From: Halomonas sp. ML-15
GTDB taxonomy: Bacteria > Pseudomonadota > Gammaproteobacteria > Pseudomonadales > Halomonadaceae
Length of the DNA stretch: 64,000 bases
Direction of reading: 5' to 3'
Assembly: GCF_014779595.1 (NCBI RefSeq)
Contig: NZ_JACXZT010000009.1
Location: 3,378 to 67,377, forward strand
The translations under genes and the position numbers were made by a program. Shown in pieces: positions 1 to 27,732 of the stretch; positions within the stretch are counted from its first letter, which is position 1; each line of letters begins with the position of its first letter. The notes under the pieces are model-generated. The model did no database searches and had not been told where the DNA came from. It saw only the letters and a program-made list of their open reading frames with translations.

Positions 1-43
1 GCCTAATGCTAAATATGAAGAAGGAAAAATTGATATACCATAA
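1..43 (+). CDS. 3' end of an upstream paralogous membrane-protein gene (…PNAKYEEGKIDIP*), same C-terminal type as ORF 1971-2705
   Basis: Frame 2 reads PNAKYEEGKIDIP-stop. Near-identical nt to 2662-2705. Confidence 0.5.
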   Translation, partial: PNAKYEEGKIDIP

Positions 44-226
44 ATCTCGGCTTTTTGTGAACCAATGGCATTATATTTTGAGGCGAAGGGGCTGATGTAA
101 AAAATAGTAATAAGGCCCCGTTCAAGCGCGTGATGAGCCTGCTGTAAATCCTGCATCAGACCTCGGCTAAGCCCACGAGAGCAGTGCGGAAGTGGTGATA
201 TAACCCGAACGTATCAGGGCTACTGG

Positions 227-631
227 GTGAAAATCGCCTTTCCCGCCTTGCTGGCGGGTGAAACCGTCAAGCTATCCGAAAATGCCCGAGGCGGGTTCTG
301 GGCACCTGCCAGCAGTTATGAACAAAGCCCCACTCAACAAGGTGAACGGGGGGCCGTGCTACCCGCTGACGCTGGCTATGACACTGACGATGTACGAGTA
401 TGGCAAACCTGGATTCCCGCCAGTGAGCAAGCCGAGCGCGAGCCGTTTGTACTGACAGTGAATTATGCAGAGACAATGCTCGCATCATCAGAAAGCAGTT
501 TGGGCTTTACCTTTTATAAGCCGAATGCCGCCCGAGGCAAGAAAGAGATCGAGCCTAATAGCGCAGAAGGGCAAGGCATCAGCCTGCCCGCCCGCTTTGA
601 AATCACGGTACCCATGAGTTTAGAAGAGTAA
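227..631 (+). CDS. Leader-module small ORF (134 aa), unknown function; intact only in this copy
   Basis: ORF with conserved core FPALLAGETVKLSENARGGFWAPASSYEQSPTQQGERG. Alternative overlapping frames exist, so coding status is uncertain. Confidence 0.35.
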   Translation: MKIAFPALLAGETVKLSENARGGFWAPASSYEQSPTQQGERGAVLPADAGYDTDDVRVWQTWIPASEQAEREPFVLTVNYAETMLASSESSLGFTFYKPNAARGKKEIEPNSAEGQGISLPARFEITVPMSLEE

Positions 632-641
632 GGATATTGAT

Positions 642-1367
642 ATGTGGTTTGTACAACCCAAACAGGACCATATCTCTCAGATACCATGGATACATGCGGA
701 TGAGACTGCCATTATGAGCTGGCAGATTAGGGCGCGTAATTATAATGTCTTTGTGGCCAATATTTTGTTTTGCGTGCTTTTTGTAGTGTGTTTGATTTCA
801 GCCTATTTGTCTTCCTTCGTAGGAGTGAGCTTGCTATCTAAAGCTTTTGTTGGAGGAGGGATGTTTGTTTTTTTAATATTGATTGCTATGAGCATGACCC
901 ACCAGACCTCCATTCTTGTCTACCGCTTTACAGATCAATATGCAGAGGAATGTACTTGGAAGCCACAGATGGAGGCTGTGAAACCATTTTTAAAATGGTC
1001 GGCTATTATCTCGATGCCAATTGTTCTGGTGCTGATTCTCATGGATCCGTCACTGCTCATTACCAGCCTGGGGCCGCTGGCAATGGGCATCGCGGCTTGG
1101 ATGATGGGGACATCAAAAGGTTATCAAGAACTGCATGGAATGCAACACCACGACTACGATTGGCGTAAAGCTGACAAAGTTTACCTTTATCCGGGAAGAG
1201 ATATCATTGGCTTGAATGTGCCTTGGTATCACCCTGAAATGGACGAGATGATACCGGAAGGTATCAAGGAGATTTATTGCAAAGAAGGTGAACGCGATAA
1301 GGTATTGAATTTTTTGACAAATAATCTCCCAGATATCGAGGTTGTAGAAGAAAAGTTTCATCTGTGA
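642..1367 (+). CDS. Multi-TM membrane protein, cassette family A paralog 1 (241 aa)
   Basis: Hydrophobic helices with GGG between TM1 and TM2. N-terminal 170 aa ~75% identical to 1971-2705. C-terminal ~70 aa unrelated. Confidence 0.7.
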   Translation: MWFVQPKQDHISQIPWIHADETAIMSWQIRARNYNVFVANILFCVLFVVCLISAYLSSFVGVSLLSKAFVGGGMFVFLILIAMSMTHQTSILVYRFTDQYAEECTWKPQMEAVKPFLKWSAIISMPIVLVLILMDPSLLITSLGPLAMGIAAWMMGTSKGYQELHGMQHHDYDWRKADKVYLYPGRDIIGLNVPWYHPEMDEMIPEGIKEIYCKEGERDKVLNFLTNNLPDIEVVEEKFHL

Positions 1368-1502
1368 CGGTGGGGTGTATACGTGATTAAGAGCGTGAGC
1401 TCGATTGTAAAGAGCAGAGCAGGGCTTCATGAATCATAAGGATAGCTATATCATCACAAGCGCCACTGATGTGGCGCTTGGCATGTGCCATGATGTTATT
1501 TT

Positions 1503-1960
1503 GTGACTGAATATATTATCGAGCAGTATAATAAAATAGAGCGCCAAGTCATTTGGTTACAAGTCGCCTTTCCCGCTTTGCTGGCGGGTGAAACCGTCAA
1601 GCTATCCGAAAATGCCCGAGGCGGGTTCTGGGCACCTGCCAGCAGTTATGAACAAAGCCCCACCCAACAAGGTGAACGGGGGCCGTGCTACCCGCTGACG
1701 CTGGCTATGACACTGACGATGTACGAGTATGGCAAGCCTGGATTCCCGCCAGTGAACAAGCTGAGCGCGAGCCGTTTGTACTGACAGTGAATTATGCAGA
1801 GACGCTGCTCGCATCATCAGAAAGCAGTTTGGGCTTTACCTTTTACAAGCCGAATGCCGCCCGAGGCAAAAAAGAGATCGAGCCCAATAGCGAAGAAGGC
1901 CAAGGCATCAGTCTGCCCGCTCGCTTTGAAATCACGGTACCGATGAGTTTAGAAGAGTAA
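1503..1960 (+). pseudogene. Leader-module copy 2, frameshifted at G-tract (G5 vs G6)
   Basis: ORFs 1503-1784 and 1685-1960 together equal 227-631 with a -1 frameshift at 1678-1682. Confidence 0.5.
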
Positions 1961-1970
1961 GGATATTGAT

Positions 1971-2705
1971 ATGTGGTTTGTACAACCCAAGCAGGACTAT
2001 ATTCCAGAGATTCCATGGTTGCATCCGGATGAGCCTGCCATCACAAGCTGGCAAATTAGGGCACGTAACTATGATACACGTGCAGCTAATGTTTTGTTCC
2101 TAGTTCTAGTGGTCGTTTATTTTTTCGGTGCCTATTTGTTTTCTTCTCTATTTGGAGAGTCATTGCTTTTTACTTTTTTGGTAGGAGGGGGGCTTTTTTT
2201 GTTAGCTAGCCTGATTGCCATGAGCATGACCCATCAGACATCTATCCTTGTTTACCGGTTTACGGAGAAAAATGCTGAAGTGTGCTCCTGGAAACCGCAA
2301 ATGGATTCGGTAAAACCATTTTTAAAATGGTCCGCCATTATTTTGATGCCAATTGTTCTGGTGCTGATTCTCATGGATCCCTCGTTGCTCATTACTAGCC
2401 TAGGGCCGCTGGCAATGGGCTTTGCGGCCTGGATGATGGGATCATCAAAAGGCTACCAGGAAATAGCCCGAGGAAGTCGACATGAAGAGATTGACTGGAC
2501 AAAAACGGAGCATATCAAGGTATGGCGAAAGCGAAGCATGATTGCTTTGACCTATCAGTGGAAGCCTTTCAAGCGTAATTCTAGCTACCGACCGAGAACA
2601 CATCTTCTCTACTGCCTTCCCGAAGAACTGGATGACCGCATTCAGTTCTTCAAGGAACACCTACCTGATGCTGAATATGAAGAAGGAAAAATTGATATAC
2701 CATAA
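1971..2705 (+). CDS. Multi-TM membrane protein, cassette family A paralog 2 (244 aa)
   Basis: Paralog of 642-1367. Its C-terminus matches the fragment at 1-43. Confidence 0.7.
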   Translation: MWFVQPKQDYIPEIPWLHPDEPAITSWQIRARNYDTRAANVLFLVLVVVYFFGAYLFSSLFGESLLFTFLVGGGLFLLASLIAMSMTHQTSILVYRFTEKNAEVCSWKPQMDSVKPFLKWSAIILMPIVLVLILMDPSLLITSLGPLAMGFAAWMMGSSKGYQEIARGSRHEEIDWTKTEHIKVWRKRSMIALTYQWKPFKRNSSYRPRTHLLYCLPEELDDRIQFFKEHLPDAEYEEGKIDIP

Positions 2706-2831
2706 AGCTTGACTTTTTGTGAACCATTATATTTTGAGGCGAAGGGGCTGATGTAAAAAAATAGTAATAAGGCCCCGTTCAAGCGCGTGATGACCCTGCT
2801 GTAAATCCTGCATCAGAGCTCGGTTAAGCCC

Positions 2832-3113
2832 ATGAGAGCATTGCGAAGGGGGATATCTCACGAACGAATCAGAGCTGCTGAGTACAAATCGCTTTTTCCC
2901 GCTTTGCTGGCAGGTGAAACCGTCAAGCTATCCGAAAATGCCCGAGGCGGGTTCTGGGCACCTGCCAGCAGTTATGAACAAAGCCCCACCCAACAAGGTG
3001 AGCGGGGGCCGTGCTACCCGCTGACGCTGGCTATGACACCCAACTCAGCCAATGGCGACTGGCATGAAATCGACGGTCGGGCCATCGTGGTCCCAGCCAC
3101 CAGTAACGACTGA
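2832..3113 (+). pseudogene. Leader-module copy 3, truncated and diverging after ERGPCYPLTLAMT; abuts the family B gene
   Basis: Conserved core present. G5 frame. Downstream sequence unrelated to copies 1 and 2. Confidence 0.35.
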
Positions 3114-3120
3114 GCATCTA

Positions 3121-4242
3121 ATGGCGAAACACACACACAGCGAATCGCTTCCCGAACCGACGCCGGGTCAACCTCACCGCGCCGGCGATATCGAGCGTAT
3201 CGGTACCAGCAAGGTGACCTATCTGGCGCCTTTGCCGCTGCCTACTGGCATGTCACCGGTGGATGTCAGTCAAGCCATCGGCGACCTGAACGATACCTGG
3301 CTCGACTATGGTGCCGGACCACCTAACGTTTTTGGTTACCAGTTGGCCTTATTGGGTCCCTTATCCATTGTTTTTTTCAGTCTTGTGCTGCTCCCCCTGC
3401 TACTAATTTCTAATATGGACTGGCAAGGGTATCGAATGTTGCTCGGCATAGCAGTTTTCGGAGGAGGGGGAATATCCATAATATCGTGGTGGACCATGCG
3501 GGACATGCACCGGGAGCGCTTGGGGGCTACCCCCATCCGCTTCCACCGCCAGCGCCGTGAGGTGTGCTTTATCGTCAAAGAGCGGCGCCTGGGCCATGAG
3601 GTCGAGGAGCCGGTCATCATTCCCTGGGAATCGCTGATGGCCTGGGCGGTGGAGGGGTATGGCGCGACCCAGTACGGCACCACGCGGCAGTATGGTCTGG
3701 GAATCGGCTATGCCCACCCCAAGACAGGCAAGTGGTTAAATACCGAGGGCCTGACGGCGGGCATGGCTCTCTCCCTCGGTGAGTGGGAAGTACTACGTGC
3801 TTATATGGAATATGAGCTGAATAGCCTCGATGAGGTGCAGGATCGTCTCGGTCTGCGGGCGCCTGGCGACCCGCCTCACCAGGGTGTGCATACCATTCGC
3901 AATGCCCGCCGTAAGCTCCACCAGAGCCTACGTGAACGTCCCTCGCTCTGGCGCTATCTCTACGCGATAGGGTGGTACTTTATCAACGCCATGACGTTGT
4001 GGACGCTGCCGGGTTATCTGGCGGAGCGGGAGCACCGGCTCATCCAGCAGCAGCGGCCGCAGCTCAAATTGCCCGAGGTGGAAGAGTGGTCGAAGCCCCT
4101 CCCCAAGGAGCAGTGGGCCAAGCCCAGCGAGGAGCTGGTCAGGCTCTCCGCAGAGGTACGGCGGATCCGAGAGTGCGACCCGCAGCGTCCTGTCGAAGAG
4201 GTGTTCGCTGAGGCGTATCGGAAGGAAGGGATCGAGGCCTGA
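3121..4242 (+). CDS. Membrane protein, cassette family B paralog 1 (~373 aa), unknown function
   Basis: N-terminus aligns with paralog 4279-5610 (LAPLPLP vs LSPLPLP). Shared RQRREV(C/A)F(I/V)V and EWSKPLPKxQWAKPS motifs. 2 TM helices with GGG linker. Confidence 0.7.
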   Translation: MAKHTHSESLPEPTPGQPHRAGDIERIGTSKVTYLAPLPLPTGMSPVDVSQAIGDLNDTWLDYGAGPPNVFGYQLALLGPLSIVFFSLVLLPLLLISNMDWQGYRMLLGIAVFGGGGISIISWWTMRDMHRERLGATPIRFHRQRREVCFIVKERRLGHEVEEPVIIPWESLMAWAVEGYGATQYGTTRQYGLGIGYAHPKTGKWLNTEGLTAGMALSLGEWEVLRAYMEYELNSLDEVQDRLGLRAPGDPPHQGVHTIRNARRKLHQSLRERPSLWRYLYAIGWYFINAMTLWTLPGYLAEREHRLIQQQRPQLKLPEVEEWSKPLPKEQWAKPSEELVRLSAEVRRIRECDPQRPVEEVFAEAYRKEGIEA

Positions 4243-4278
4243 TGGTGGTTGCACAGCTATAACGTGTAAGGACGCGCA

Positions 4279-5610
4279 ATGTTCAAGACCGCGCCCAAAA
4301 ATGCCCTGCCCCCGATGCGCGCCGGTGAGCGTGAAAGCCGCGCCGGGGGGGAGCAGTACTGCTTGAGCCCATTACCGCTACCCGTGGATAGCGAGCATGC
4401 AGTAGACGTGGGACATATTGATGTGCGCCATAAGGACGTCACAATGGATATCCGCCAGGGGGCCAGTCCCGAAAGCCTCATGACAGCAGGGCATATGTTA
4501 AGCATTGGGACGTGCGCTATTCTTGTGCTATTTCTTATTACATGGGGCGCTGTCGGCGGTTTCCCACCGGATTCACAGCTTATCTCGGTATGGGTGGGAG
4601 GGCTCTATTTCATTTTCCAGTTTGTCTTTATTCTAGGCATCGTCTGGATCAATACGCTGCTCAGGCGCCTCCCGCCTATTCGTCTTAACCGTCAGCGCCG
4701 CGAAGTGGCATTTGTGGTGGATCCACCTGGCCGCTTCTGGCTACCAGCGCCTCATAATCTCTGGTTAACGTCTACGGTGGGTATGGCTGCCGCAATACCT
4801 GGTGGTATGGTAATAATTGAAATTGGCGAATGGTTGCGCAGCGCCCGGGAGAGTTTTCCGCTGGGGCTGACACTACTCCATCTCGGCGCAATGGCTTTTT
4901 TCTTTGTTTATCCCCCGATCTACGATGCCTTCTGCCGCCTCTTCAAGCGCGAGCGCCGCACGGTGTTGGTGCCCTGGGAAGACGTGGTGGCGGTGTGTGG
5001 GTTTAACCCCAGCCTGGGGCCGGGCGCCATTACCGGCTTTGGCTGGAACTTTGCCCTGCTGCCACCCGATCCCGAGCGGCCGGGCTATACCCTGCCCGGG
5101 GCGGGGATTATGGTTGGCGTCGGCGGCCTGCCCGGCGCGCTGGCCCAGTGGGAGTACATCCGCCGCTTTATGGAAGAGGGCGCCGAGGCGATTACGCCCT
5201 CGGCCAAGGAGTGGGGCCTCGAGCGGTACGACGCCTATGTCGCTCGTGAAAAGGCGGCATGTGAGCGTACCAACGACAAGGCGCGCTGGCGGCGCTTTCG
5301 GCGCAAGCGCCTGTGGGAGCATGCCCGCTTCGCCCACTGGTACACCGAATATCGCATGAAGCACGTGCTGCCCAAGGCGGTTCCCAAGGACTGGCTGTCG
5401 GAGTGGTCCAAGCCGCTGCCCAAGGCACAGTGGGCTAAGCCCTCCGCCGCCGTCACCGAATTGAGCGAGCACCTGCGCGCCGCCTACCAGCGTGGCGAGA
5501 AATTTACCGACATGGGCGATATCGAGAAGCGCTTTGGGATCGCGCCCCCGGCGGCCAGCCAGAGGGCCTATCCGTCGTTTCCGTTTAGAGCTAAGGCTCA
5601 ACCCGCATGA
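4279..5610 (+). CDS. Membrane protein, cassette family B paralog 2 (443 aa)
   Basis: AAGGA RBS upstream. Paralog of 3121-4242. Proline/glycine-rich insert. Confidence 0.7.
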   Translation: MFKTAPKNALPPMRAGERESRAGGEQYCLSPLPLPVDSEHAVDVGHIDVRHKDVTMDIRQGASPESLMTAGHMLSIGTCAILVLFLITWGAVGGFPPDSQLISVWVGGLYFIFQFVFILGIVWINTLLRRLPPIRLNRQRREVAFVVDPPGRFWLPAPHNLWLTSTVGMAAAIPGGMVIIEIGEWLRSARESFPLGLTLLHLGAMAFFFVYPPIYDAFCRLFKRERRTVLVPWEDVVAVCGFNPSLGPGAITGFGWNFALLPPDPERPGYTLPGAGIMVGVGGLPGALAQWEYIRRFMEEGAEAITPSAKEWGLERYDAYVAREKAACERTNDKARWRRFRRKRLWEHARFAHWYTEYRMKHVLPKAVPKDWLSEWSKPLPKAQWAKPSAAVTELSEHLRAAYQRGEKFTDMGDIEKRFGIAPPAASQRAYPSFPFRAKAQPA

Positions 5611-5638
5611 GTAATAAGCTGGTAGATATAAGTGCGTC

Positions 5639-6097
5639 TTGATAATAGATAAGAAGGCTGAGGTCTGTTGGGCTCTGCCCTCATATAGAAGTAAAAACCA
5701 ATGGAATAGCAAGGATATATCAGTGAAGACATTCGATGTTTATGAACATTCTGTTCATGGTGCAAGGGCAGTCAAGCAGGGAATCAACTGGCCAGCCTTC
5801 TTCTTTTGTTGGATCTGGGCCATGGTGAAAAAGATGTGGGCTATTGGGTTTTTTCTGCTCGGCCTATTGGTGGTGTTCGTTGCCATTGAAGAGTTTTTCT
5901 TATACTACGCTAACATAGGGGGCGTATACCTCATGTGGGCAATGCAGCTGGCCGTGTTCCTATACGCTGGAGCGAAAGGGAATGACTGGCGTAGAGGTCA
6001 TCTTCGCAAGCGTGGCTTTCAGTACATTGGCAGCGTAGAAGCGGCGAACCAGGATGCTGCAGTAACCTCGGTAAAGCAAGCCGACTCGGCCTTATGA
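5639..6097 (+). CDS. DUF2628-like small membrane protein
   Basis: GINWPAFFFCWIWAMVKKMW motif, typical of the DUF2628 family. 2 TM helices. Confidence 0.55.
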   Translation: MIIDKKAEVCWALPSYRSKNQWNSKDISVKTFDVYEHSVHGARAVKQGINWPAFFFCWIWAMVKKMWAIGFFLLGLLVVFVAIEEFFLYYANIGGVYLMWAMQLAVFLYAGAKGNDWRRGHLRKRGFQYIGSVEAANQDAAVTSVKQADSAL

Positions 6098-6257
6098 AGC
6101 AGCAGTACATTAACCAACAGGTGATCAGCCCTGATCTCGGTAACGCCGATGATGATTACTTTGGGTGTGCCAAGATATATAGGATACTTGTCTAGGGCGG
6201 AAGAGCGTCGAGACAATCAATGTCAGGAACCATATATACAGTAAAGGGGTATAGAGT

Positions 6258-6644
6258 GTGAGCAGTGAAGAAGAGAAGGCTGTACTGAAAGAATTGGATT
6301 TCGAGTGTCCCTCATGTGGTTCTTGCTTCTGCGAAGAGTCGCAGTGGGTCGCCAATCTTATAGAATTCAAGACAGCCACTTGCCCAGACTGTAGCAGCGA
6401 GCTGGCGATGGGCGAAGAAGATGAAAGTCGACTGGTGGAATTTATGAAAAAGAAGGAAAGATTTGGAAAGGCGATGTTTGTATTTATGCTGCCCTATATG
6501 ATTGGGGGGCTTGCTGTGTCTCTCTACTTCGGTGGTCTCGGGTTTATGCTCTATATGCCCGTCGGAATTGCAGGCTTCGCACTCCTGAAAGTGCTATTCG
6601 ATAACCAGTCCGACATGACCGTTCGCTTTAATCTGAGTGAGTAA
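6258..6644 (+). CDS. Zinc-ribbon (CxxC…CxxC) protein with C-terminal 2-TM anchor
   Basis: CPSCGSC…CPDC motifs. Hydrophobic C-terminus. GTG start with AAGGGG RBS. Confidence 0.5.
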   Translation: MSSEEEKAVLKELDFECPSCGSCFCEESQWVANLIEFKTATCPDCSSELAMGEEDESRLVEFMKKKERFGKAMFVFMLPYMIGGLAVSLYFGGLGFMLYMPVGIAGFALLKVLFDNQSDMTVRFNLSE

Positions 6645-6772
6645 CGTAATTTCCGCCGACCTGGTAGACGGCGGTTTCAATGACCCAGTGTAAGGAATGG
6701 TATGACGCATATGTGGCCAGTAAGAGGGCGCCGAGCGAGCGCACCAAGAGTTCGGCAAGACAGGGAGTTCGC

Positions 6773-9028
6773 ATGATCTGCAGGAAAGGCCTCATTTTTT
6801 CAATTGTGGTGACCATGACGATGGTTATGGGCTGCTCATCCGAGCCTGAGTCGGTTGCGTTTGCTCCTGAAAAAGGCGACACACGGAGCTACCAACTCTT
6901 CAGTGAGGGCAGGCTAGGCTCCGGGTCATCCAATACCGGTCGTGATCAGGTTGTAGGGTTTGGCTCGGTATTGCGCTATGAGGTACTGGATATTGGCCGA
7001 TCTCTGAATCTGGCGATTACTCCCAGGTATCTAGAACAAAGCGTGGACGGGAGACGAGAGTTCTCCACGATGGATCCTTCGGATACCCAGAATCCAGTGA
7101 TGCGGGAGCTCATGTCCGCGGGCTTTGAAGTCGACATCGACAGTGATTCTGGAGAAGTGCGCCGTTTTACCAGCCGTAACGAGGACCTCTGGCAGACATT
7201 ACAGGAGGATGGTCTAGCGCCATTGCTCGAGATTTTCGAGGAGCAGATGACCACCGGTATGGCAATGCCTGAGATTCCGCTGACCGAAGGCGAAGTGGTG
7301 ACAGTGTCGGGCTCTCATGGCGCTGCTGACTTGCAGATTACAGTGCATTCGGTGACGGATACCGAGCTCGTGACAACACTCCAGACCGATCATGAAGAGG
7401 TCAAGTTGGCAGGCACCATGGTGCTGGAGCGTGAAACCGGATGGCTTCGTCGTCTTGCCGTGGTGAGCGAAGTGAGTCAGGAAGATCACGAAGGGCATGG
7501 CACGGTACGCCAGGCACTGGTCATGCTGCCGGAGGATGAGCCGTCCTGGTTGGGGGCATGGCTTATTAATATGGCGCCGAGTGATCCAGATGATTATGTC
7601 GCTATTCAGCCCGGCCCATCGCCGGAGGAGTTCGATGGCGATGCATTGGTAGATGGGGATACTGTACTGACTGCGCCTGTGGGTACATGGGTACCTTTTT
7701 CCAGTGAGATCGTTCTGGAGATTGACCATGATCTACCTAAAGGGGCGTTCTCTGGGTATCTAGATTTTGCTGATTTACGGATTGAAAGCGAAGAGGGTGA
7801 GGTACTGGATGTAGGGTTACAACAAACCATGCGTTACGCCTTCTATCACCCCGATCGCAAGCGGCATACCACGCAGGCTTGGTATGTTCCCCTTGGTTGG
7901 GGCGACGAACTGGCACCGCTGGAGCGCGCGAAGCGTCTTACTGCAACGGGAGTAGCATACCGCCCGGTGGCGGCAGAAGCGCTGGATTTGCCGCTGGACA
8001 GTGATCAAAAGACAGAGGTGACATCTGGGGACATCCGTGCCGAGGCAATACCCACGGATAGTCCGAGGGAGTTTTTATTGCGCTTTCATAGTACGCCGGA
8101 TCACTGGTTCGGTGATCGTATCTACGGCATAAAAGATGCGATTACGCGGAGGATTCCGGAAGAGGACGCTCCAGACTGGCTGACATCCCACGAGGCTTGG
8201 ATGTTACAAGCGGTGGCGATAGGACGTTCGACAGCCAGCGACCTGCGTGTCGAGTTTGAAGAGGGCAAGACCCCTGACAGCTTGACCCTGTTCGCGCTCA
8301 GCGAAAGCGAAGCCGTTCCCGTCGACGGTCCTGTCCGTTTTGTCACCGAAGAGGCCCGCTACTCCGATATCGATCTGCCGCCCCCCTTTGACGTCACCCT
8401 TTACCCAGACGGGGATGAACCGCCTCAGGTTGGATTGGCTGACCTGGAATTACCCGATGCGGAGAACAACCGCGCGCTGTTTAGGCTCCCGGCGTCCTTG
8501 GCAGCCATGTGTGAACCAGTGGTGGTCGAGGCCCCGAAGATCAATAACCAGCCACTGGTGTGGCAGCACGTTGATGAGGACGACGCTGGTAACCGGCAGC
8601 AACTGCCCACTGAACAGAAATGGCAGCTGATTACCGAGGATGGCGTGCGCAAGCACTTTTATGACATTGAAGTAGAAAGCGAGCTCCGCTGTCGGGGAGA
8701 AGGAGAGTGGCAGACGGTAGACCTGGCGCTGGGTGACAAACCTTGGCTCGTGCGCCTGGACGAGCTCCCAGACGCTGTTGATCAAGAGCAGAGCATGAGT
8801 CGCTTCCTCCAGCGTTACCGCTTTGTCAGTGAACAGGGCGATGCGCTGGCACCGATGCCGAGAGAGAGGTACAGCGATGTCTCTCTGGCCACAGCTTCAA
8901 TTGCCGATTACCTCAATGAAGGTGATCGGCTGCGTCTGGCGGGAAGTGTCCAGCGAGTGGAGCGTTTCGAGGGCGATGGTCAACCCGACACACGCCGCTG
9001 GTCGCTACGCTACGCGCCGCTGCCATAA
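6773..9028 (+). CDS. Large acidic lipoprotein (~751 aa), unknown function
   Basis: Start at ATG 6773 (GGGAG RBS) gives signal peptide with lipobox VMGC. Long acidic ORF with no recognisable catalytic motif. Confidence 0.7.
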   Translation: MICRKGLIFSIVVTMTMVMGCSSEPESVAFAPEKGDTRSYQLFSEGRLGSGSSNTGRDQVVGFGSVLRYEVLDIGRSLNLAITPRYLEQSVDGRREFSTMDPSDTQNPVMRELMSAGFEVDIDSDSGEVRRFTSRNEDLWQTLQEDGLAPLLEIFEEQMTTGMAMPEIPLTEGEVVTVSGSHGAADLQITVHSVTDTELVTTLQTDHEEVKLAGTMVLERETGWLRRLAVVSEVSQEDHEGHGTVRQALVMLPEDEPSWLGAWLINMAPSDPDDYVAIQPGPSPEEFDGDALVDGDTVLTAPVGTWVPFSSEIVLEIDHDLPKGAFSGYLDFADLRIESEEGEVLDVGLQQTMRYAFYHPDRKRHTTQAWYVPLGWGDELAPLERAKRLTATGVAYRPVAAEALDLPLDSDQKTEVTSGDIRAEAIPTDSPREFLLRFHSTPDHWFGDRIYGIKDAITRRIPEEDAPDWLTSHEAWMLQAVAIGRSTASDLRVEFEEGKTPDSLTLFALSESEAVPVDGPVRFVTEEARYSDIDLPPPFDVTLYPDGDEPPQVGLADLELPDAENNRALFRLPASLAAMCEPVVVEAPKINNQPLVWQHVDEDDAGNRQQLPTEQKWQLITEDGVRKHFYDIEVESELRCRGEGEWQTVDLALGDKPWLVRLDELPDAVDQEQSMSRFLQRYRFVSEQGDALAPMPRERYSDVSLATASIADYLNEGDRLRLAGSVQRVERFEGDGQPDTRRWSLRYAPLP

Positions 9029-9045
9029 ACAGGGAGGTATGTTTC

Positions 9046-10929
9046 ATGAAACGTTTTTGCTGTGTTCTGGTGTTCACCTTGGCATTTATCCCGTGGCTGG
9101 TGCTAGGCGAAGAGGGGGGCGATATTCAATGGATCGACGCCGACCTTATGGGGGTGGAAGAGGGCGACTCTACGGCCGCGTACTACTTTGAGCCACCGGT
9201 GGCCGATGGTGAACTCTGGTCGGTCATCCTTTACTACATTGACGAGAGCGACGGCGATGATCCCGTGGTCGCGTATGACGTCCAACTCGATAACCCGGAC
9301 TTTCACGATGCGTTCTTGGTGGGTGAATACAGCCGCTACTACCAGGATGGCAGCCTCCACAGAGTTGGCACGCTGGATGACAAGAGCCGACCACATGGGA
9401 CCTTTACCCATTATCACCGCGATGGCAGCTACGAGGTGTCGGAATATCGGCATGGGCAGCGTCATGGATACCGTCGCGACTACCACGCCAACGATCAACT
9501 GAAACACGAGCAGCACTTCGTTGATGGCGAGCCCGAGGACGGCGAGCGCGTTTACTACGATGAGAATGGTGAAGTGACAACGCGATACTGGCACGTGGAC
9601 GGCAAACTGCATGGTGCGTTGGAACGATTCGTTGGCGGTGTGCTGATGCTAGGGGAGGACTACGTTGATGGACAGCGGCACGGTTGGGCGCGTCGTTTTA
9701 CCGAGGAGGGTGAAAAGGTCAGCGAAGTGGAGTTTGTAGGCGGACAGAGACATGGTGTTGAACGTCGCTGGAGTGATGGCCAGCTTACTCTGGAGAGCCA
9801 CTATCGGCACGGCCAGCAACATGGCCAGCGCCAACGATGGGACGATGGCGTCCTCATCGTGAATAGCTCGTACGTGGAGGGGTCACGTCAGGGTGAAGCG
9901 CAGTTCTTCCGTAATGATGGTACCCGAAGCCGTTACGAATACCGGGATGAGGACGGGCAACTCATTGAGAGACGGGAATATGGCACTGACGACCAGATGA
10001 CCTCGCTGATGATCGTCGAAGAGGGGGAGTACGGCCCTATGACTCGCCAGGAAACCTATCGCGACGGTGCGCTGGTGAGACGCAGGGTGAATAGCGAGGA
10101 CCGTCGTTGGAGTCTGGACGAGCAGTTTCAGCCCCCTGGTGCGGAAGAGCCACGTTACCGACGGGAGACGGTTGACCGTGAGATGCACGGCCGCCAGGTG
10201 AGACCGCTCAACTGGCCAGAAGGTAGTACTGAGATCGGTGAATACGATCATGGTGTCCCGGTGGGGGAACACCGGCATACCGATGAGGATGGCAATCTGA
10301 TCGCCGGTGGGCGGTATGAAAACGGTCACAAAGTGGGTGAGTGGATCACGCTGAGCTACGAGAGCACTGTCCACGAGAACTATGACGATGAGGGGCGTTT
10401 GCACGGCGAGCGTCGGGAAGTCCACGAGGATGGCACGCAGCTGGTGCGGGAGCATTATCGACATGGGGAGCGGCATGGCGATTACATTCAGCGCCATGCG
10501 TGGAACGGGCACATCATAGGCGAAGGTGAGTACCGCGATGGTCAGCGGATCGGCACATGGCGGGTGTTCAACGATTCCCACCAGGCGACATTCGAAGGTG
10601 AGTATGTCGACGGTGAAAAGGACGGACTCTGGGTAGCCCACTTCGAGGATGGCTATGAGCGTGGGAGGGTTCGCTATGACGCCGGATTGCCAGTGGGTGA
10701 TCACTACATTTTCACCCACGATGGCGCCGTGGAGCTAGTCTCCCGTTACGAGGAGGGGCGGCTGCATGGTGAGCAACTGCGTTATTTCGAAGGTACGTTA
10801 AGTGAGGTCCGGCGCTATCGCAATGGAGAGCCCCACGGATTGAACGAGTTCTTCCTGCCTGACGGCGAGCGCTACATGGTGTCGGAATACCGTGACGGCG
10901 TTCTGCTGGAAAGGGAAGACGAGCTGTGA
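9046..10929 (+). CDS. Secreted MORN-variant (YwqK-like) repeat protein (627 aa)
   Basis: Signal peptide. More than 15 tandem ~23-aa repeats of the form Y..DG.L...G.Y..G.RHG. AGGGAGG RBS. Confidence 0.75.
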   Translation: MKRFCCVLVFTLAFIPWLVLGEEGGDIQWIDADLMGVEEGDSTAAYYFEPPVADGELWSVILYYIDESDGDDPVVAYDVQLDNPDFHDAFLVGEYSRYYQDGSLHRVGTLDDKSRPHGTFTHYHRDGSYEVSEYRHGQRHGYRRDYHANDQLKHEQHFVDGEPEDGERVYYDENGEVTTRYWHVDGKLHGALERFVGGVLMLGEDYVDGQRHGWARRFTEEGEKVSEVEFVGGQRHGVERRWSDGQLTLESHYRHGQQHGQRQRWDDGVLIVNSSYVEGSRQGEAQFFRNDGTRSRYEYRDEDGQLIERREYGTDDQMTSLMIVEEGEYGPMTRQETYRDGALVRRRVNSEDRRWSLDEQFQPPGAEEPRYRRETVDREMHGRQVRPLNWPEGSTEIGEYDHGVPVGEHRHTDEDGNLIAGGRYENGHKVGEWITLSYESTVHENYDDEGRLHGERREVHEDGTQLVREHYRHGERHGDYIQRHAWNGHIIGEGEYRDGQRIGTWRVFNDSHQATFEGEYVDGEKDGLWVAHFEDGYERGRVRYDAGLPVGDHYIFTHDGAVELVSRYEEGRLHGEQLRYFEGTLSEVRRYRNGEPHGLNEFFLPDGERYMVSEYRDGVLLEREDEL

Positions 10930-12038
10930 TGAGGTGCCAGTGGAAATCGATGAGGCTGCCGATCTCGGTGATGCTGATGATCCTGACGTTGATCGCGTGT
11001 GACTCAGCCAGGGATGTCGATGTGATTCAGGAGTACCGGGGAAACAGCCATCGTACCGGGCTGTTCGAGGGTAGTGGGCCAAGTGAAAAGCCCAGTCAGC
11101 TATGGCGCTTCCTCACATTGAGTGTGCTGACAGAAACTCCGGTGATCGGCGGTGACACCTTGTTCGTTGGAAGTACCGATCGCTCCGTCTATGCTCTCGA
11201 CGTAGACACTGGAAAGCGGCGTTGGCGTTACAGAACTCTGGGCAATGTTCGCGATGCGGTCGCTGTGGACGAGCAACGCGTTTATGCTGCTGGTGAGGAT
11301 AATACTTTCTACGCCATCGACCGCTATAGCGGCGAGCCACACTGGCAGTTTCCCCTGGACAAGACGCCCCACGGTGCTGCCGCGGTGCGCGAGGGCTTGG
11401 TCTACTTCGGCAGTTTCGATGATCGAGTGATTGCACTGGATACCGACACCGGTGAGCTAGTGTGGGAGTTTCAAGGCAGTCGATCGTTCGCCGCGGGCAT
11501 CACCGTGGTCGAGGACACCCTGTATGCCGCTAGCTTCGACGGACATCTCTACGCGTTTGATGCCGAAACTGGGGAGAAACGCTGGCGGGTTTCCGTGGGT
11601 CGAGGACATTGGCTGACCACCACGCCTGTCTACCGTGAGGGGCAGGTCTTCGTCGGTGGTTGGGCGCAGTACATGACGGCTGTCGGCGCCGAAACAGGAG
11701 AAATCAACTGGACCATCGACACCGAATCTCGGTTGGACCATCCTCCCAGCGTGGCACATGGCTTGGTCTACATCAGTGGAATGAACGCTCTGCAGGCCGT
11801 GGATGAGCAGACTGGGGAACTACGCTGGTCCTTCGATGAGCGCATATTCCGCTCCCCCGCGGTGACCGATAATCGCCTATACGCCGCTTGCGAGAACCAG
11901 GTCTGTACCCTGGATCCTATCAGTGGCGAACTGCTTTGGCGCTCCGATCCGTTGAGCGATACCGTCACTACAATCACCGTGCACGGAGATAGGCTTTTCG
12001 TGACCACCATTGATGGTTATATCTACGCCCTGCAGTGA
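10926..12038 (+). CDS. PQQ-like beta-propeller repeat lipoprotein (BamB-like fold)
   Basis: Lipobox LIAC. Repeats of (V)YAxxxDxxhYAhDxxTGExxWxF. Start overlaps the upstream stop (translational coupling). Confidence 0.75.
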   Translation: MMRCQWKSMRLPISVMLMILTLIACDSARDVDVIQEYRGNSHRTGLFEGSGPSEKPSQLWRFLTLSVLTETPVIGGDTLFVGSTDRSVYALDVDTGKRRWRYRTLGNVRDAVAVDEQRVYAAGEDNTFYAIDRYSGEPHWQFPLDKTPHGAAAVREGLVYFGSFDDRVIALDTDTGELVWEFQGSRSFAAGITVVEDTLYAASFDGHLYAFDAETGEKRWRVSVGRGHWLTTTPVYREGQVFVGGWAQYMTAVGAETGEINWTIDTESRLDHPPSVAHGLVYISGMNALQAVDEQTGELRWSFDERIFRSPAVTDNRLYAACENQVCTLDPISGELLWRSDPLSDTVTTITVHGDRLFVTTIDGYIYALQ

Positions 12039-12819: not shown

Positions 12820-13455
12820 ATGGAGCAATACATGATCCCTTTTCGTTTTAATAGAGACTTTGATGTCGAGATGCTCGAGTCTCTATATCAGCATCTCCGC
12901 ACCCATGACAATGGAGTGGAACTTACTCTACGTGCTCCAGGCGGAAATAAAGTAGACGCTGCTGGCAAGGCAGTTTCCGGGGTGGTCAAGGATGCTGGAG
13001 GAAGAACATTGTTATCAATGCGCCCAAAAGAGGGGGTTGTTTACTTGAGGCGGGCTGGTGCTTTAAAGGCACCTCTGATTGATTTTCTTAAGGAGCGTGG
13101 ATTTGATCAAGATAAAATAAATGGTGAGCTTTCCGTGGTATGTATCGGTGTTTACATTGCGCTAGTGGCTGGTCTTGGGTTTTACTATTTTCTCAATGCC
13201 CAGATGCTGTATTTTTACCCTGTTCTATTGATGTGCGCAGGCGTGATGGTTGCTGGATTATTTCTCTTGTCGCACTCCAGCAAGCCGGGCCAAGAGGTTT
13301 GGGAATTACCCGGAATGATTATGCTTGTTCTAGGCGCTTTGTTTACCGCCCCAGCGTGTATCTTGGCGAAGCCAATGATCAAGACGCTTGGGCTAAAGAA
13401 GTTGCAGTATCATCTTGTACAGGACAATGTCAGCTTGTATGAGGTAGAAAGGTAG
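12820..13455 (+). CDS. Membrane protein, unknown (soluble N-domain plus 3-4 TM)
   Basis: Hydrophobic segments in the C-terminal half. Confidence 0.45.
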   Translation: MEQYMIPFRFNRDFDVEMLESLYQHLRTHDNGVELTLRAPGGNKVDAAGKAVSGVVKDAGGRTLLSMRPKEGVVYLRRAGALKAPLIDFLKERGFDQDKINGELSVVCIGVYIALVAGLGFYYFLNAQMLYFYPVLLMCAGVMVAGLFLLSHSSKPGQEVWELPGMIMLVLGALFTAPACILAKPMIKTLGLKKLQYHLVQDNVSLYEVER

Positions 13456-14756: not shown

Positions 14757-15461
14757 CTACGAGGCAGATTCGCTACGCGAAGCCTTCAAGCGAGCCATGA
14801 CACCTTCCACAGCGTCGCTTTCCTGATCGATGCCTGCTGCCTTCAGGCGCTCGTCGAGGTCGGCACCGGTCAGCTCCTTCTCCAGCTGCACGCTGGCATG
14901 TTGCTTATCCTCAAGACGTTGCTGGCGCTCGCGGATACGAGCGAGGGTGGTCTTGGCACTGGTCAGAGAGGACTGGTTGCTACCGATGTTGGTGTCGATC
15001 TGAGCGGTAGTGCGGAGTACCCGCTCGTTGGTCTTGACCACTTGGAGTTCGCGCTTGTATTCGGCCAGCTGTTTCTCCGACTTCTGCATGCGTTCACGCA
15101 TGCTGTCCACCTTGCCTTGCAGCTTGGTACGGGTGGCGGTTAGCTCGCTGCGTTGGCGCTCTGCTTCCACGATGCGTTCGGCGACTTCGCGAGCCAGGTC
15201 TTCCTTGCTGGCTGCCAGGGCCTTGCGGGCGTCATCTTCACGGCGGGCGATTTCATCTTCTGTATTCTTGATCTGGCGTGCAAGGGAGGTGTTCTCGGCC
15301 ATCAGGGCTGCAAGCTCCTGACGCGCCTGTTGAAGCTCGTTCTCGGCGTCACGTATTTCCTGTTCGAAGATGCGGTTCGCCTGGTTGTCCACGACCGACT
15401 CGCCCAGTTCGTTAACCCCTCCGCGCATGGCGGTAAGCATTTTCTTGAATACCGATTTCAT
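14757..15461 (-). CDS. PspA/IM30 (ESCRT-III-like) family protein, YjfJ-like
   Basis: N-terminal MKSVFKKMLTAMRGGVNELGE…NQANRIFEQEIRDAENELQQARQ. Coiled-coil throughout. Typical PspA/IM30 length. Confidence 0.85.
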   Translation of the reverse strand: MKSVFKKMLTAMRGGVNELGESVVDNQANRIFEQEIRDAENELQQARQELAALMAENTSLARQIKNTEDEIARREDDARKALAASKEDLAREVAERIVEAERQRSELTATRTKLQGKVDSMRERMQKSEKQLAEYKRELQVVKTNERVLRTTAQIDTNIGSNQSSLTSAKTTLARIRERQQRLEDKQHASVQLEKELTGADLDERLKAAGIDQESDAVEGVMARLKASRSESAS

Positions 15462-15476
15462 ACCGTAGCGCTCCTG

Positions 15477-15881
15477 TTACTTTAAGAAATCTTCAAATAT
15501 TTCAAGTAGATCAATGGCGTTGTCGGCAAGAGTGGTTAGCTCTTGGGCAATTTCTCGATAGGTTGCCGAAGTGGCCAAGGCCCCATGTACGACATAATGT
15601 TGCTCGATTTTGCCAAGAGCGCTGAGTGGCATGGGCACGCTGAGTCTCAGCATGTTGTCGAGAAGTGTCGGGAGACGCTCCGGGATGACTTCACCCTCAT
15701 CAAAAAGGTAAGTGAAGCATAGAATCTGTGCTTCGTCGGCGGTGAGGTAGACAGGCATCTCCTCTGCGCCCGAAACGGTAACCTGCAGCACGTCTTCTTT
15801 ACCTTCTATAGGCATGACGTGGAAGTGTCGACCTTCATGGGTCGTATCGCTGAGGTGTAATGTGAGGTCTTGCGTATCCAC
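15477..15881 (-). CDS. YjfI-like (DUF2170) cytoplasmic protein, partner of the PspA-family gene
   Basis: Size and position immediately upstream of the PspA-like gene mirror the E. coli yjfI-yjfJ arrangement. Sequence recalled as DUF2170-like with moderate certainty. Confidence 0.55.
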   Translation of the reverse strand: MDTQDLTLHLSDTTHEGRHFHVMPIEGKEDVLQVTVSGAEEMPVYLTADEAQILCFTYLFDEGEVIPERLPTLLDNMLRLSVPMPLSALGKIEQHYVVHGALATSATYREIAQELTTLADNAIDLLEIFEDFLK

Positions 15882-15909
15882 TGCGCTCTCCCTTTCTCGT
15901 GGAATCTGG

Positions 15910-15938
15910 TTGACAGCGTTTCTACAACTAATTAAGTT
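15910..15938 (+). promoter_or_regulatory. Candidate sigma70 promoter for the nfeD-flotillin operon in the divergent intergenic region
   Basis: TTGACA, 17 nt spacer, TAAGTT. Confidence 0.3.
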
Positions 15939-16047
15939 TATCCGGATGAAGAGGGGGTTGGCAACGCATTGGCTACTGAATGTCGTTGCAAGGGGAGGCT
16001 TTGCCAGGGATTCCTGAGGCAGCCATAGTTAAAGCCTGTCTCAAGGG

Positions 16048-16683
16048 ATGATGAGGCAAATGTCGATATTTCTATCTATTATCATATCTTTTCCTACCGT
16101 CGTTTTTACTGTTCTGCTCTGTGTTGCCGTTATCTATTGGCTCGTATCCCTATCGGGAATGGTCGATGGTGATGTACTGGATGGTGATGTTGGAGGCGAT
16201 GGGGCAGTAGACTTCGGTGGTTTGCTCGCCACGCTTGGGCTCCAAGGTGTGCCGTTACCCCTGATGGTGACGCTCCTGTCTTTAACGGGCTGGCTGTTGA
16301 GCTACTTCGCTGACCTGTGGCTGGGCGTTAGTACTGCATCTGGCTGGCTAAGTTGGTTGCTGGGCATCGTTCTCCTGCTTGCATCGCTGGTGGGCGCACT
16401 CTTTGCTACGGCCATTCTCATCCGCCCGCTACGGCCCCTGTTCGTGCGGGCATACCACAAGCCGCAAGAAAAGCAGCTCATTGGCACACTCTGCACGATT
16501 CGTTCGGGCTCGGTTGGTCTGGGCAGTGGAAGTGCCGATGTCCACGTCGATGGCTCGCACTTGATTCTACAGGTAAGAAGCGACTCGGCCTTGGCACGCG
16601 GGGACCAAGCCGTACTGATCGAATACTTGTTGGAAGAGCAGGCCTACTGGGTCGTACCTGAAAAAGAATTCCATACCGGCTAG
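16048..16683 (+). CDS. NfeD-like membrane protein (YqiJ family) with C-terminal OB-fold
   Basis: TM helix, acidic DGDVLDGDVGGDG stretch, further TMs, C-terminal beta-rich segment. Gene directly precedes the flotillin gene. Confidence 0.75.
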   Translation: MMRQMSIFLSIIISFPTVVFTVLLCVAVIYWLVSLSGMVDGDVLDGDVGGDGAVDFGGLLATLGLQGVPLPLMVTLLSLTGWLLSYFADLWLGVSTASGWLSWLLGIVLLLASLVGALFATAILIRPLRPLFVRAYHKPQEKQLIGTLCTIRSGSVGLGSGSADVHVDGSHLILQVRSDSALARGDQAVLIEYLLEEQAYWVVPEKEFHTG

Positions 16684-16706
16684 GCCGGTGTAAACACGCA
16701 GGCAAC

Positions 16707-18662: not shown

Positions 18663-18788
18663 GGCATGGGCGACACCGCGTAGGTGCGTGTCGCCGGGGC
18701 CAGCCTTGCCTGTGTCCCGACCTTTCGCTTCAGGGCCGCCATGTATTGCACATGCTGCGGCCCTTGCCATTGCCAGCCTACTTCCAGG

Positions 18789-26610: not shown

Positions 26611-27732
26611 TTACTCAGCAGGCTGACATATACTCTGCAAAATTTCCCAATCCTGTTGGGATAGCGATGGCTTGGTGGTTGGCAAAGCAGAATGATTACG
26701 GACGAGCTCAGCCCGGACAGTGCTCTCTGGGTGTGTATGAAGGTATGAAGGGAGCCAGTACTCTTCATCGTCCTGCTTCGCAAGCCGATCAAAGAAATTG
26801 GCAAAGGGTTCGCTGCTGATGCGGGCCGTATTGAGAAGTTCCAGAGCAAACTCATCGGCTTGAAGCTCTGCTGTATGTGTATAATTGGCACGCAGTAGAG
26901 CTTCTCCCAGTAAGGTAATGGTAGCGCCTCCGGTTATATCGCCTAGAATCATTGCCAAAATTCCAGCTGAACCTGCTGAGCGCAGGGCTAATCTGGTAGG
27001 ATCTCGTGCTTCGACATGTCCTATTTCATGGGCAATCACGCCAGCAATCTCGTCAGGCGATTCAGCAGATTCAATGAGCCCGCGCAGTAACACAATATGC
27101 CCCCTTGGGGCAGCAAAGGCATTGACCATGGGGTGGTCAATAACTTGTACATGAATATCGTATTCTGTTGGATGACTTTCCACCAGTCTAATTACCAGCC
27201 TATCGAGTACGGCCGTCTCTTTCACGCCACTACAGGCTTTGGCCCCTCCTAGCATGTTTTTCATCTGGGAAACAACAGCGCGACCGACAGCAGCTTCGCT
27301 GTCTCGAGGAATATAAGTAGCTAGGCGGTCTGCGAGTGCCGGTATAATGACAAAGAGTAGAGCGAGCACTGATACTGTGGCAGCACCCGCCAGAGTCACG
27401 AGTTGACGCTTTATGCCAGGCCTGCTTTCTCGTGCATCCAGTTTGGGTGCGGCTTTCTGCAACCAGAGAATGAGCGCTGCATCGGTTATGATCAGTCTGG
27501 CTGGGTCATGTGGCGTTTCATCCTCGCTCTGTGTGTATTGCGTCAGCATGAGCCCCTCGCCTTGGTAAGATCGCTTGCGTAGGGCGTCTAGCGGCCAGCT
27601 AATATACTGGCCAGCCTCAGTTTCAATATGCAAGGCATCCCGCCCGGCTGATAGCCGGACGAGATGCTTTCTGGATGTTTCACCGTCGAAGAAAAGCCCT
27701 TGGGTGCTCGCTTCGGAGGAAGCATGCTTCAC
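26611..27732 (-). CDS. M48-family zinc metallopeptidase with N-terminal domain and TM anchor
   Basis: HEIGH zinc-binding motif within AHEIGHVEARD. Downstream E. TM helix ~res 110-135. 4-nt overlap with the upstream DUF898 gene. Confidence 0.85.
   Translation of the reverse strand: MKHASSEASTQGLFFDGETSRKHLVRLSAGRDALHIETEAGQYISWPLDALRKRSYQGEGLMLTQYTQSEDETPHDPARLIITDAALILWLQKAAPKLDARESRPGIKRQLVTLAGAATVSVLALLFVIIPALADRLATYIPRDSEAAVGRAVVSQMKNMLGGAKACSGVKETAVLDRLVIRLVESHPTEYDIHVQVIDHPMVNAFAAPRGHIVLLRGLIESAESPDEIAGVIAHEIGHVEARDPTRLALRSAGSAGILAMILGDITGGATITLLGEALLRANYTHTAELQADEFALELLNTARISSEPFANFFDRLAKQDDEEYWLPSYLHTHPESTVRAELVRNHSALPTTKPSLSQQDWEILQSICQPAE

Follow-up and report, generated by a model that had tools for sequence, protein, structure and literature searches.

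What kind of locus places near-identical copies of one short module in front of tandem membrane-protein genes that are alike over part of their length and divergent over the rest? The question is raised by the first 5610 nucleotides of a 64,000-nucleotide stretch of DNA from Halomonas sp. ML-15 (hereafter the window, to which all coordinates refer unless another locus is named), where open reading frame (ORF) listing, repeat finding and self-BLAST give the order remnant-A1-remnant-A2-truncated remnant-B1-B2, all on the plus strand. A1/A2 and B1/B2 belong to two membrane-protein families, designated A and B, and the remnants are pieces of an effector gene. An earlier note on this DNA had read the repeated module as a leader and had offered two explanations, a polymorphic toxin/orphan immunity island or a locus of recombinational variation. 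The former gains support from the identity of the remnants, from the position of A and B genes after effector genes at other loci and from the variation in unit number, and we consider it highly probable that region 1-5610 makes up the distal portion of an array of orphan immunity genes of the sequential-displacement type, belonging to a type VI secretion system (T6SS) module of VgrG, DUF4123 adaptor, BTH_I2691/VasX-type effector and immunity protein.

The repeated module is the 3' end of an effector gene

The module occurs three times, at 188/227-640, 1545/1560-1960 and 2895-3039, and its copies share 95-97% nucleotide identity in pairwise comparisons, in agreement with the roughly 95% first noticed; such similarity over 150-410 nucleotides is far beyond chance. 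It is not a leader, but coding sequence, namely the 3' end (last 134-147 codons) of a BTH_I2691/VasX_N T6SS effector gene that persists as a scar. The parent gene is seen in Halomonas sp. BL6 (L002 in our numbering of related loci), where genes for TssM, a PAAR-lysozyme, VgrG, a DUF4123 protein and a 1122-residue VasX_N protein are followed by a gene for a 241-residue protein. The BL6 effector scores 286.6 bits against NF041559 (BTH_I2691_fam, cut-off 150) and 81.2 bits against PF20249 (VasX_N, cut-off 27), above both thresholds. The BTH_I2691 family includes VasX, Tke5 and Ptx2, pore-forming toxins that are loaded on VgrG by DUF4123 adaptors (PMC13133200).

In tblastn comparisons, remnant copy 1 (188-631) corresponds to residues 976-1122 of the BL6 effector, with 94% amino-acid identity over residues 989-1122 (134 residues) and 90.5% over 976-1122 (147 residues), which places the start of homology at 188 and not at 227, as had been proposed for the module; its frame is open from 137 to 631 and lacks the N-terminal ~975 effector codons. 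Copy 2 (1545-1960, residues ~985-1122) aligns as two pieces in different frames, at 84% and 96.8% identity, owing to a -1 frameshift at a run of G residues at 1678-1682. Copy 3 (2895-3039) covers residues ~993-1034 only, with 90.5% identity over 42 residues; it carries a frameshift at the G-run 3004-3008, is cut off at 3039 and matches copy 2 at 99% of 145 nucleotides in repeat finding. Together the three remnants span effector residues 976/985/993 to 1122/1122/1034 at 84-97% amino-acid identity. Copies 2 and 3 are one G short in the run (GGGGG at 1678-1682 and 3004-3008 versus GGGGGG at 348-353), and it is plausible that the G-run at this hairpin-forming site is a slippage site. The hairpin, with a 9-bp stem of the form CCCCAC[T/C]CAACAAGGTGA[A/G]CGGGG, lies at 328-353, 1658-1682 and 2984-3008 and ends in the G-run; it was flagged solely as a minus-strand terminator-like match.

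Both orphan units have GAAGAGTAAGGATATTGATATG as the junction between stop and start codons, and the very same sequence joins the true effector and immunity genes of BL6, with 10 nucleotides separating the stop codon of the effector or remnant from the downstream family A gene. The remnant segment (976-1122) lies past the end of the family profile match (residue 952), where Tke5 has been described to carry a beta-rich C-terminal region, and its assignment to the effector was made through the 90-94% identity to the parent and not through a profile. All that the remnants hold is the conserved last 42-147 residues, downstream of the transmembrane (TM)/pore region. When the 134-residue ORF of copy 1 was used to search for homologs, all proteins retrieved came from Halomonas and Vreelandella, and some of these were longer. 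At other loci remnants likewise contain frameshifts or internal stops (e.g. L003 and L015), and their left boundary falls at effector residues ~985-995 in closely related loci and at ~1004-1045 (query positions 29-70 of 147 residues) in more distant ones; those of L003 are heterogeneous, with 55-89% identity to the query. Differences between copies are mostly synonymous, the ratio of nonsynonymous to synonymous divergence (dN/dS) being 0.08-0.18, and the persistent similarity of the scars may reflect conversion from, or recent capture from, a live effector gene. A promoter inside the remnant was considered as a cause of its conservation and is rejected, with 6 sites found in a promoter scan against 6.3 expected in shuffled sequence.

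Family A genes follow the effector

Effector, remnant, A, B, VgrG and adaptor matches were mapped over 15 related loci. Family A lies directly 3' of the effector in 10 loci (L002, L003, L005, L007-L011, L013 and L015) from Halomonas, Vreelandella and Billgrantia. The full vgrG-adaptor-effector-immunity module is present in L002, L005, L007, L009-L011, L013 and L015, while L003 and L008 begin inside the effector; VgrG and DUF4123 genes stand upstream of the effector wherever the contig extends that far. On these grounds family A is presumed to be the cognate immunity protein of the BTH_I2691/VasX_N effector, a link to BTH_I2691 toxins that is apparently made here for the first time in the literature searched.

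A1 (642-1367, 241 residues, type-1 tail), a presumed immunity protein against the pore-forming effector type that we call VX2, is 88% identical to the gene directly after the BL6 effector and 100% identical to IEI94_05670 of Halomonas sp. ML-15. A2 (1971-2705, 244 residues), also a presumed immunity protein, has a type-2 tail and a different type of TM hairpin, and is 81% identical to L002 11754-12482. Both are under purifying selection relative to their BL6 counterparts, with dN/dS of 0.16 for A1 and 0.21 for A2. Family A proteins combine four predicted TM helices with a PH-like soluble domain; ~140 sequence clusters are detectable, of which the named ones all come from Halomonadaceae or related metagenome bins, and a fold search gave no PDB match beyond the generic PH-like fold. 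Homology between families A and B could not be demonstrated (hhalign probability 18.7%, an 18-column motif only).

The comparison across strains that the earlier note had proposed shows extra remnant-plus-A units ranging from none to at least four per locus and differing between species, and a family-wide shuffling of segments that is described below. The order of units in the window is itself colinear with BL6 over 2.8 kb at 87% nucleotide identity. The BL6 counterparts of A1 and B1 (L002 10416-11152 and 12993-14087) are broken by frameshifts, while the genes in the window are uninterrupted; the decay of single orphan genes proceeds independently from strain to strain. The downstream flank of the array is unlike that of BL6 and L001, being without genes for a sulfur transporter or malic enzyme. 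Effector remnants are fused to internal fragments of VgrG in L001 (8412-8710) and L006 (574-1136), and in L008 a fragment (5245-5787) lies downstream of a remnant, as expected for scars of a cassette replacement that removed the segment from mid-vgrG to the effector 3' end.

Arrays of A and B genes stand at contig ends in the draft assemblies L004, L012, L014 and L016, and a Logan contig carrying an identical B2 begins 170 bp upstream of that gene. Near-identical scars probably break short-read assemblies, so that copy numbers in drafts are lower bounds and the arrays are under-counted.

Family B genes end the array

As first described, the third copy of the module stands before family B: the copy is truncated at 3039, and B1 follows at 3121-4242. 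B1 (373 residues) is a DUF6708-like membrane protein and a presumed orphan immunity protein against a BTH_I2691 effector of the type VX1; its start at 3121 is backed by an 81%-identical homolog of 373 residues that aligns 1-372 to 1-372. B2 (4279-5610, 443 residues), also DUF6708-like and presumed to be an orphan immunity protein, is 76% identical to L002 14327-15658. Family B had been described as duplicated, and a second B gene is indeed present, but not through recent duplication: at ~25-30% identity (E 3e-10), B1 and B2 are distant paralogs.

B1 shares 57% amino-acid identity with the sequence directly downstream of the L001 effector, which is a different BTH_I2691/VasX_N type with a different C-terminus, 26% identical in one alignable N-terminal stretch. 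In L019, an unrelated metagenomic contig, a BTH_I2691-like ORF precedes a distant relative of B1, and L006 begins inside a B1-like gene whose upstream neighbour is beyond the contig. Of 54 relatives aligned with B1 and B2, 30 match DUF6708 (PF20455) at E <= 1e-3 (best 8e-11), and family B can best be regarded as a diverged lineage with a relationship to DUF6708 and not as a curated member. An AlphaFold2 model of B1 (pLDDT 92.3) combines a TM hairpin with a beta-sandwich and ends in a helical part; the corresponding fold search gave no informative PDB neighbour. The profile and structure searches proposed at the outset have in this way yielded a DUF6708 relationship for the relatives of B1 and B2 and a PH-like fold for A, with no family match for A and with B1 below the DUF6708 cut-off. 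In Stenotrophomonas (S. rhizophila), a BTH_I2691 effector, Tse3, is followed by the DUF6708 protein Tsi3a, which is annotated as immunity protein, and 12 homologous genes (PMC13340143).

The segment between remnant copy 3 and B1 (3040-3120) possibly holds the final ~14 codons of a VX1-type effector gene that was displaced, although the signal is weak. It contains NGDWHEIDGRAIVVP, compared with NNWYAIDPRTMVMNP at the effector ends of L001 and L011, with ~60% nucleotide identity over ~45 nucleotides, and it was not found upstream of B1-like genes at other loci; an effector remnant of the VX1 type at 3040-3113 is suggestive only.

Segment mosaicism of family A

A1 and A2 are identical at 121 of 162 positions over residues 1-162, the 75% N-terminal similarity that had been noticed from the start. 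Their C-terminal tails, by contrast, had been called completely unrelated and are in fact homologous, with 21 of 79 residues (27%) identical in a gapless alignment, a BLASTP E value of 1.9e-11 on the tails alone and common conserved positions at G166, H169, D173-W174, Y212-C213 and L229-P230-D231. Along the unit, nucleotide identity is 95-100% through the remnant and the first ~35 nucleotides of A, 58-78% over codons ~12-110 (58-62% in the hairpin) and 87-88% in the core; the tail has ~30-45%, and identity is at random level from the tail through the intergenic block.

The window opens, as the earlier note had recognised, with the 3' end of a further A paralog bearing the tail of A2: positions 1-43 hold its last 13 codons and stop codon (type-2 tail), the gene body lying upstream of the window, and the translation at the window edge, PNAKYEEGKIDIP, compares with PDAEYEEGKIDIP in the A2 tail (repeat D5, 2-64 versus 2664-2726, 92%). 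The expectation of the earlier note that more of the array lies further upstream is plausible. The repeat extends through the downstream intergenic block, 2-384 matching 2664-3039 at 90.6% identity in self-BLAST. The type-2 intergenic block accompanies the type-2 tail in both copies, at 44-187 (repeats D4 and D7, 69-204 versus 2725-2861, 89-100%) and at 2706-2894 (repeats D4, D5 and D7 and self-BLAST); copy 1 also matches L002 12443-12804 and L001 from 12429 onward. The type-1 block behind A1 (1368-1544) matches L002 9622-9740 within the 209-1489 alignment and contains a terminator-like hairpin (1470-1492) and a promoter-like site (1503-1532), neither of which exceeds chance in our scan. The proposed co-variation of the tail type and the type of the intergenic segment behind it holds, since both are parts of a single uninterrupted variable block.

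Within one genome, the closest relative of a paralog is not another of its paralogs there. Over the first 500 alignment columns A1 is 88-90% identical to BL6 and L001 genes as against 76% to A2, and tails are 93-96% identical across genomes as against 47% within the window. The tails of the window, BL6 and L001 fall into discrete types (93-97% identity among members, ~47% across types), relative to which the 5' part of A is reassorted, two BL6 genes for instance having tails that are 97% alike and upstream parts that are 77% alike. The remnant copies of the same three loci are 88-97% identical and do not cluster by genome. Synonymous divergence between A1 and A2 is ~1.6 overall, compared with 0.09-0.25 between window and BL6 remnants. 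In the positional pair of A2 and its BL6 counterpart, residues 31-80 have a proportion of nonsynonymous differences (pN) of 0.33 and a saturated proportion of synonymous differences (pS) of 0.75, whereas pS in the flanks is 0.2-0.4. That pS is saturated in this segment and unsaturated in the flanks indicates that the hairpin segment was replaced and not that it mutated faster; positive selection on the hairpin is not supported, given the same pattern.

The mosaic is not peculiar to the window. Among 54 family A sequences, mean pairwise identity is 36.5% in the hairpin (residues 36-86) and 38.7% in the tail, compared with 70% at the N-terminus and 61% in the core; 32 hairpin types and 17 tail types occur in 42 combinations, hairpin and tail relatedness are nearly uncorrelated (Spearman 0.24), and in 56 pairs tails at least 85% alike go with hairpins at most 60% alike. 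Segment shuffling is therefore real and general in family A, with TM hairpin and tail as two variable modules between conserved blocks, a two-module mosaic that was not found in the literature searched. The scar and the A core (residues 87-162) are the likely recombination substrates, and the hypervariable TM hairpin is a natural candidate for the specificity determinant. One step further, family A might be a combinatorial immunity protein, its hypervariable TM hairpin (residues 36-86) and PH-like tail (residue 163 to the end) being reassorted in homologous recombination across conserved blocks that include the scar; we put this forward tentatively and regard it as doubtful.

How the array may have formed and what speaks against it

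Each unit consists of an effector 3' scar, i.e. the last ~134-147 codons with the native junction of stop codon, ribosome-binding site (RBS) and start codon, and a complete family A gene, and the array terminates in two DUF6708-like family B genes of a kind that elsewhere stands behind a second BTH_I2691 effector type. Effector-immunity cassettes would have been replaced or stacked by recombination, the old effector being removed and its 3' end and immunity gene being kept. Later homologous recombination would run through two conserved blocks, one formed by the remnant and the first ~35 nucleotides of A and the other by the A core, and would exchange modules between paralogs and strains, namely the first TM hairpin and the C-terminal tail with its downstream intergenic segment. 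In the model developed for Vibrio, an incoming effector-immunity module displaces the resident effector while the immunity gene and sometimes the effector 3' end are kept, after which blocks pass from strain to strain by ordinary homologous recombination (Kirchberger et al. 2017, PMC5361080). What is seen in Halomonas and its relatives matches this model, namely the VgrG fragments at remnants of L001, L006 and L008, the heterogeneous remnants of L003 and paralogs that are closer to genes of other genomes, the last of these being the criterion of Kirchberger et al. against simple duplication (PMC5361080). Effector remnants do stand between the immunity genes, the paralogs are not mutual closest relatives, and the array genes are homologous to genes beside live effectors elsewhere (A1 88%, B1 57%).

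If they act like Tki5, TsiV2 and Pti2, A and B would reside in the inner membrane and disarm pore-forming toxin arriving from non-kin neighbours, and the retention of several immunity variants would broaden protection against non-kin toxins. Immunity to BTH_I2691 toxins is provided by proteins of the inner membrane, where Tki5 attaches to the TM region of Tke5 and keeps the membrane from being depolarised (PMC13133200). The Halomonas genes resemble this type in that they lie directly downstream of the toxin gene and encode predicted integral inner-membrane proteins (a TM hairpin in the case of B1).

Several observations weigh against this interpretation. Although the position 3' of a vgrG-adaptor-effector-immunity module is seen in related loci, there is no effector, VgrG, adaptor or other T6SS gene within the 64-kb window, and no ML-15 effector appears among the listed homologs or the three nearest clusters, which are collapsed at 90% identity and do not prove absence; in ML-15 the array may thus stand apart from any live effector. 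Because it is colinear with BL6 over 2.8 kb at 87% identity, the part of the array in the window is older than the split of ML-15 and BL6 and is not rapidly changing. Family A has no Pfam, NCBIfam or PADLOC match, and both B proteins remain below the DUF6708 cut-off of 27 bits (B2 at 19.1 bits, B1 with no match). In 10 effector-A pairs, effector segments show no clear co-variation with either variable module of A (r <= 0.47). Finally, it is from gene position only that we infer the immunity function of A and B.

Alternative explanations

The array might be an old and inert tandem duplication, in which one unit of effector 3' end and immunity gene was copied in situ by unequal crossing-over and then changed by point mutation, without shuffling or horizontal input. 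This would suit the nearly constant left boundary of the remnants in closely related loci, as if one unit had been copied, and the colinear unit order of window and BL6, but is hard to reconcile with a divergence that is sharply discontinuous inside one unit (95-100% in the remnant, 58-62% in the hairpin, 87% in the core and ~30-45% in the tail), with synonymous divergence far higher between A1 and A2 than between the remnants, with discrete tail types that are common to different genomes and reassort with hairpin types, and with the strong differences among the L003 remnants; we judge it improbable. The alternation of conserved and variable segments and their exchange between paralogs would also be expected of a programmed variation locus (silent cassettes of the pilS type or a shufflon) that feeds one expressed membrane-protein gene on a generational timescale, the second explanation offered in the earlier note. 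We give it hardly any credence: positions 1-9000 contain zero inverted repeats, no recombinase or invertase is found among the ORFs scanned in 1-31 kb, the cassettes are not partial but full-length ORFs under purifying selection, each with its own start codon and RBS, and unit order and content have been kept with BL6 at species-level divergence.

A different possibility concerns the module itself, which might be a functional small gene, i.e. a free-standing beta-rich C-terminal domain of the effector that cooperates with the downstream membrane protein. Copy 1 and both orphan copies of BL6 hold an uninterrupted 134-codon frame, the module is better conserved than the adjacent genes and its differences are mostly synonymous; a low dN/dS, however, would arise just as well in copies that until recently belonged to a live effector gene or that are converted from one, window copies 2 and 3 are frameshifted or truncated, as are copies in L003 and L015, and the left boundary varies in more distant loci, which leaves this reading with a slight chance. 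Lastly, A and/or B might be other accessory membrane proteins that travel with the effector, such as loading helpers or membrane-stress factors. Family A indeed has no detectable similarity to any named immunity family, but the gene sits directly 3' of the toxin gene with a coupled 10-nucleotide junction, it has been multiplied into arrays whose orphan copies are kept after effector loss, its predicted inner-membrane topology is like that of immunity proteins validated for this toxin family (PMC13133200), and in S. rhizophila the immunity protein annotated for a BTH_I2691 effector belongs to DUF6708 (PMC13340143). The chance that these are accessory proteins and not immunity proteins seems small to us.

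Relation to known systems

In the orphan rhs-CT/rhsI and cdiA-CT/cdiI modules of Rhs and contact-dependent inhibition (CDI) systems, displaced toxin 3' fragments and immunity genes are strung together behind a main toxin gene. Blocks of homology there permit recombination with the main gene, and the retained fragment has a piece of the conserved core followed by a variable toxin domain, which recombination can re-activate. The Halomonas remnant is different, consisting of the conserved extreme C-terminus only, without the toxin domain, and because of this a recombination of scars with the main effector gene would alter the length of the array and not the toxin type. The immunity proteins of pore-forming colicins (Cai/Cei type) are small polytopic inner-membrane proteins with specificity in their TM helices. 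Similarly, the first TM hairpin is the most variable part of family A, but there is no sequence or fold match to these proteins, and family A has an additional PH-like soluble domain.

The orphan arrays of V. cholerae and its relatives provide a closer parallel, as they are arrays of immunity genes 3' of a vgrG-adaptor-effector-immunity module in which the displaced effector 3' end is kept, paralogs are closer to genes of other genomes and content varies between species (Kirchberger et al. 2017, PMC5361080). In contrast to these arrays, the host belongs to the Halomonadaceae and family A has no detectable relatives outside this family, nearly every Halomonas unit retains an effector scar with native junction, each immunity gene is itself a mosaic in which two variable modules assort independently, and the effector is not seen in this window. 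The tse3-tsi3a locus of S. rhizophila CFBP13503, with its vgrG, DUF4123 adaptor, BTH_I2691 effector and DUF6708 immunity genes and 12 homologous immunity-like genes, shares the toxin family and the Pfam family of family B relatives, and differs in that B1 and B2 are below the DUF6708 cut-off and the main Halomonas array is made of family A; the available part of its description mentions no effector scars between units (PMC13340143). Tke5-Tki5 of P. putida, VasX-TsiV2 of V. cholerae and Ptx2-Pti2 of P. aeruginosa likewise pair a BTH_I2691 effector with VgrG and a DUF4123 adaptor, and the gene directly downstream encodes an inner-membrane protein (PMC13133200), as is predicted for the Halomonas gene.

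Composition and downstream neighbourhood

The low G+C content noticed at the outset is confirmed, with 0.43-0.44 in the A genes, 0.54 in the remnants and 0.60 in the B genes, compared with 0.647 for the window from 30 to 64 kb. Rfam, tRNA and PADLOC scans gave zero matches.

Downstream of the array are three genes for small membrane proteins, a DUF2628 protein (5639-6097), a CxxC zinc-ribbon and TM protein (6258-6644) and a 211-residue ORF (12820-13455), for which L011, L005 and L014 have translated matches behind their family A arrays; they may represent additional orphan immunity genes or cargo that recurs in such islands. An operon-like run at 6680-12038 encodes a 782-residue protein without family match, a 627-residue MORN-repeat protein (with a weak match to the LIC20035 adhesin) and a 370-residue PQQ/BamB-like beta-propeller, and is also present on the Logan contig bearing the identical B2. 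At 14757-23735, a divergent PspA/IM30 and DUF2170 pair on the minus strand stands beside a plus-strand operon for proteins of 211, 651 and 1683 residues, to which no PADLOC model matched; the 651- and 1683-residue ORFs (16.7-23.7 kb) were considered as VgrG and Rhs and rejected, the former having no matches and the latter being a DUF3686, DUF7902 and AAA ATPase protein. A 413-residue ORF (24684-25925) without Pfam or PADLOC match, located in a strongly GC-skewed stretch of low G+C content (0.43-0.47), matches L015 14103-15401 at 85-95% at the protein level, directly after the L015 family B genes, and may be mobile or island-associated. Two minus-strand ORFs of 373 and 396 residues (26611-28919) were considered as further B copies and rejected, as they encode an M48 peptidase (with DUF7092) and a DUF898 membrane protein; they lie in a second low-GC stretch, and their lengths equal the two possible B1 ORF lengths by chance.

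Implications

An orphan-immunity array of this kind would extend the sequential-displacement picture of T6SS evolution from Vibrio to the halophilic Halomonadaceae, and would tie an unannotated family of ~240-residue proteins, with its ~140 clusters, to one particular group of toxins, the BTH_I2691/VasX pore formers. The mechanism by which pore-forming T6SS toxins are recognised by their membrane immunity proteins is described as unresolved (PMC13133200), and the mosaic of family A, in which a hypervariable TM hairpin and tail are combined across a conserved core, offers chimeras with which this recognition could be mapped. If family A proteins are combinatorial in the sense proposed above, the array would be a reservoir that makes new immunity specificities against a diversifying pore-forming toxin, and not a mere archive of old ones.

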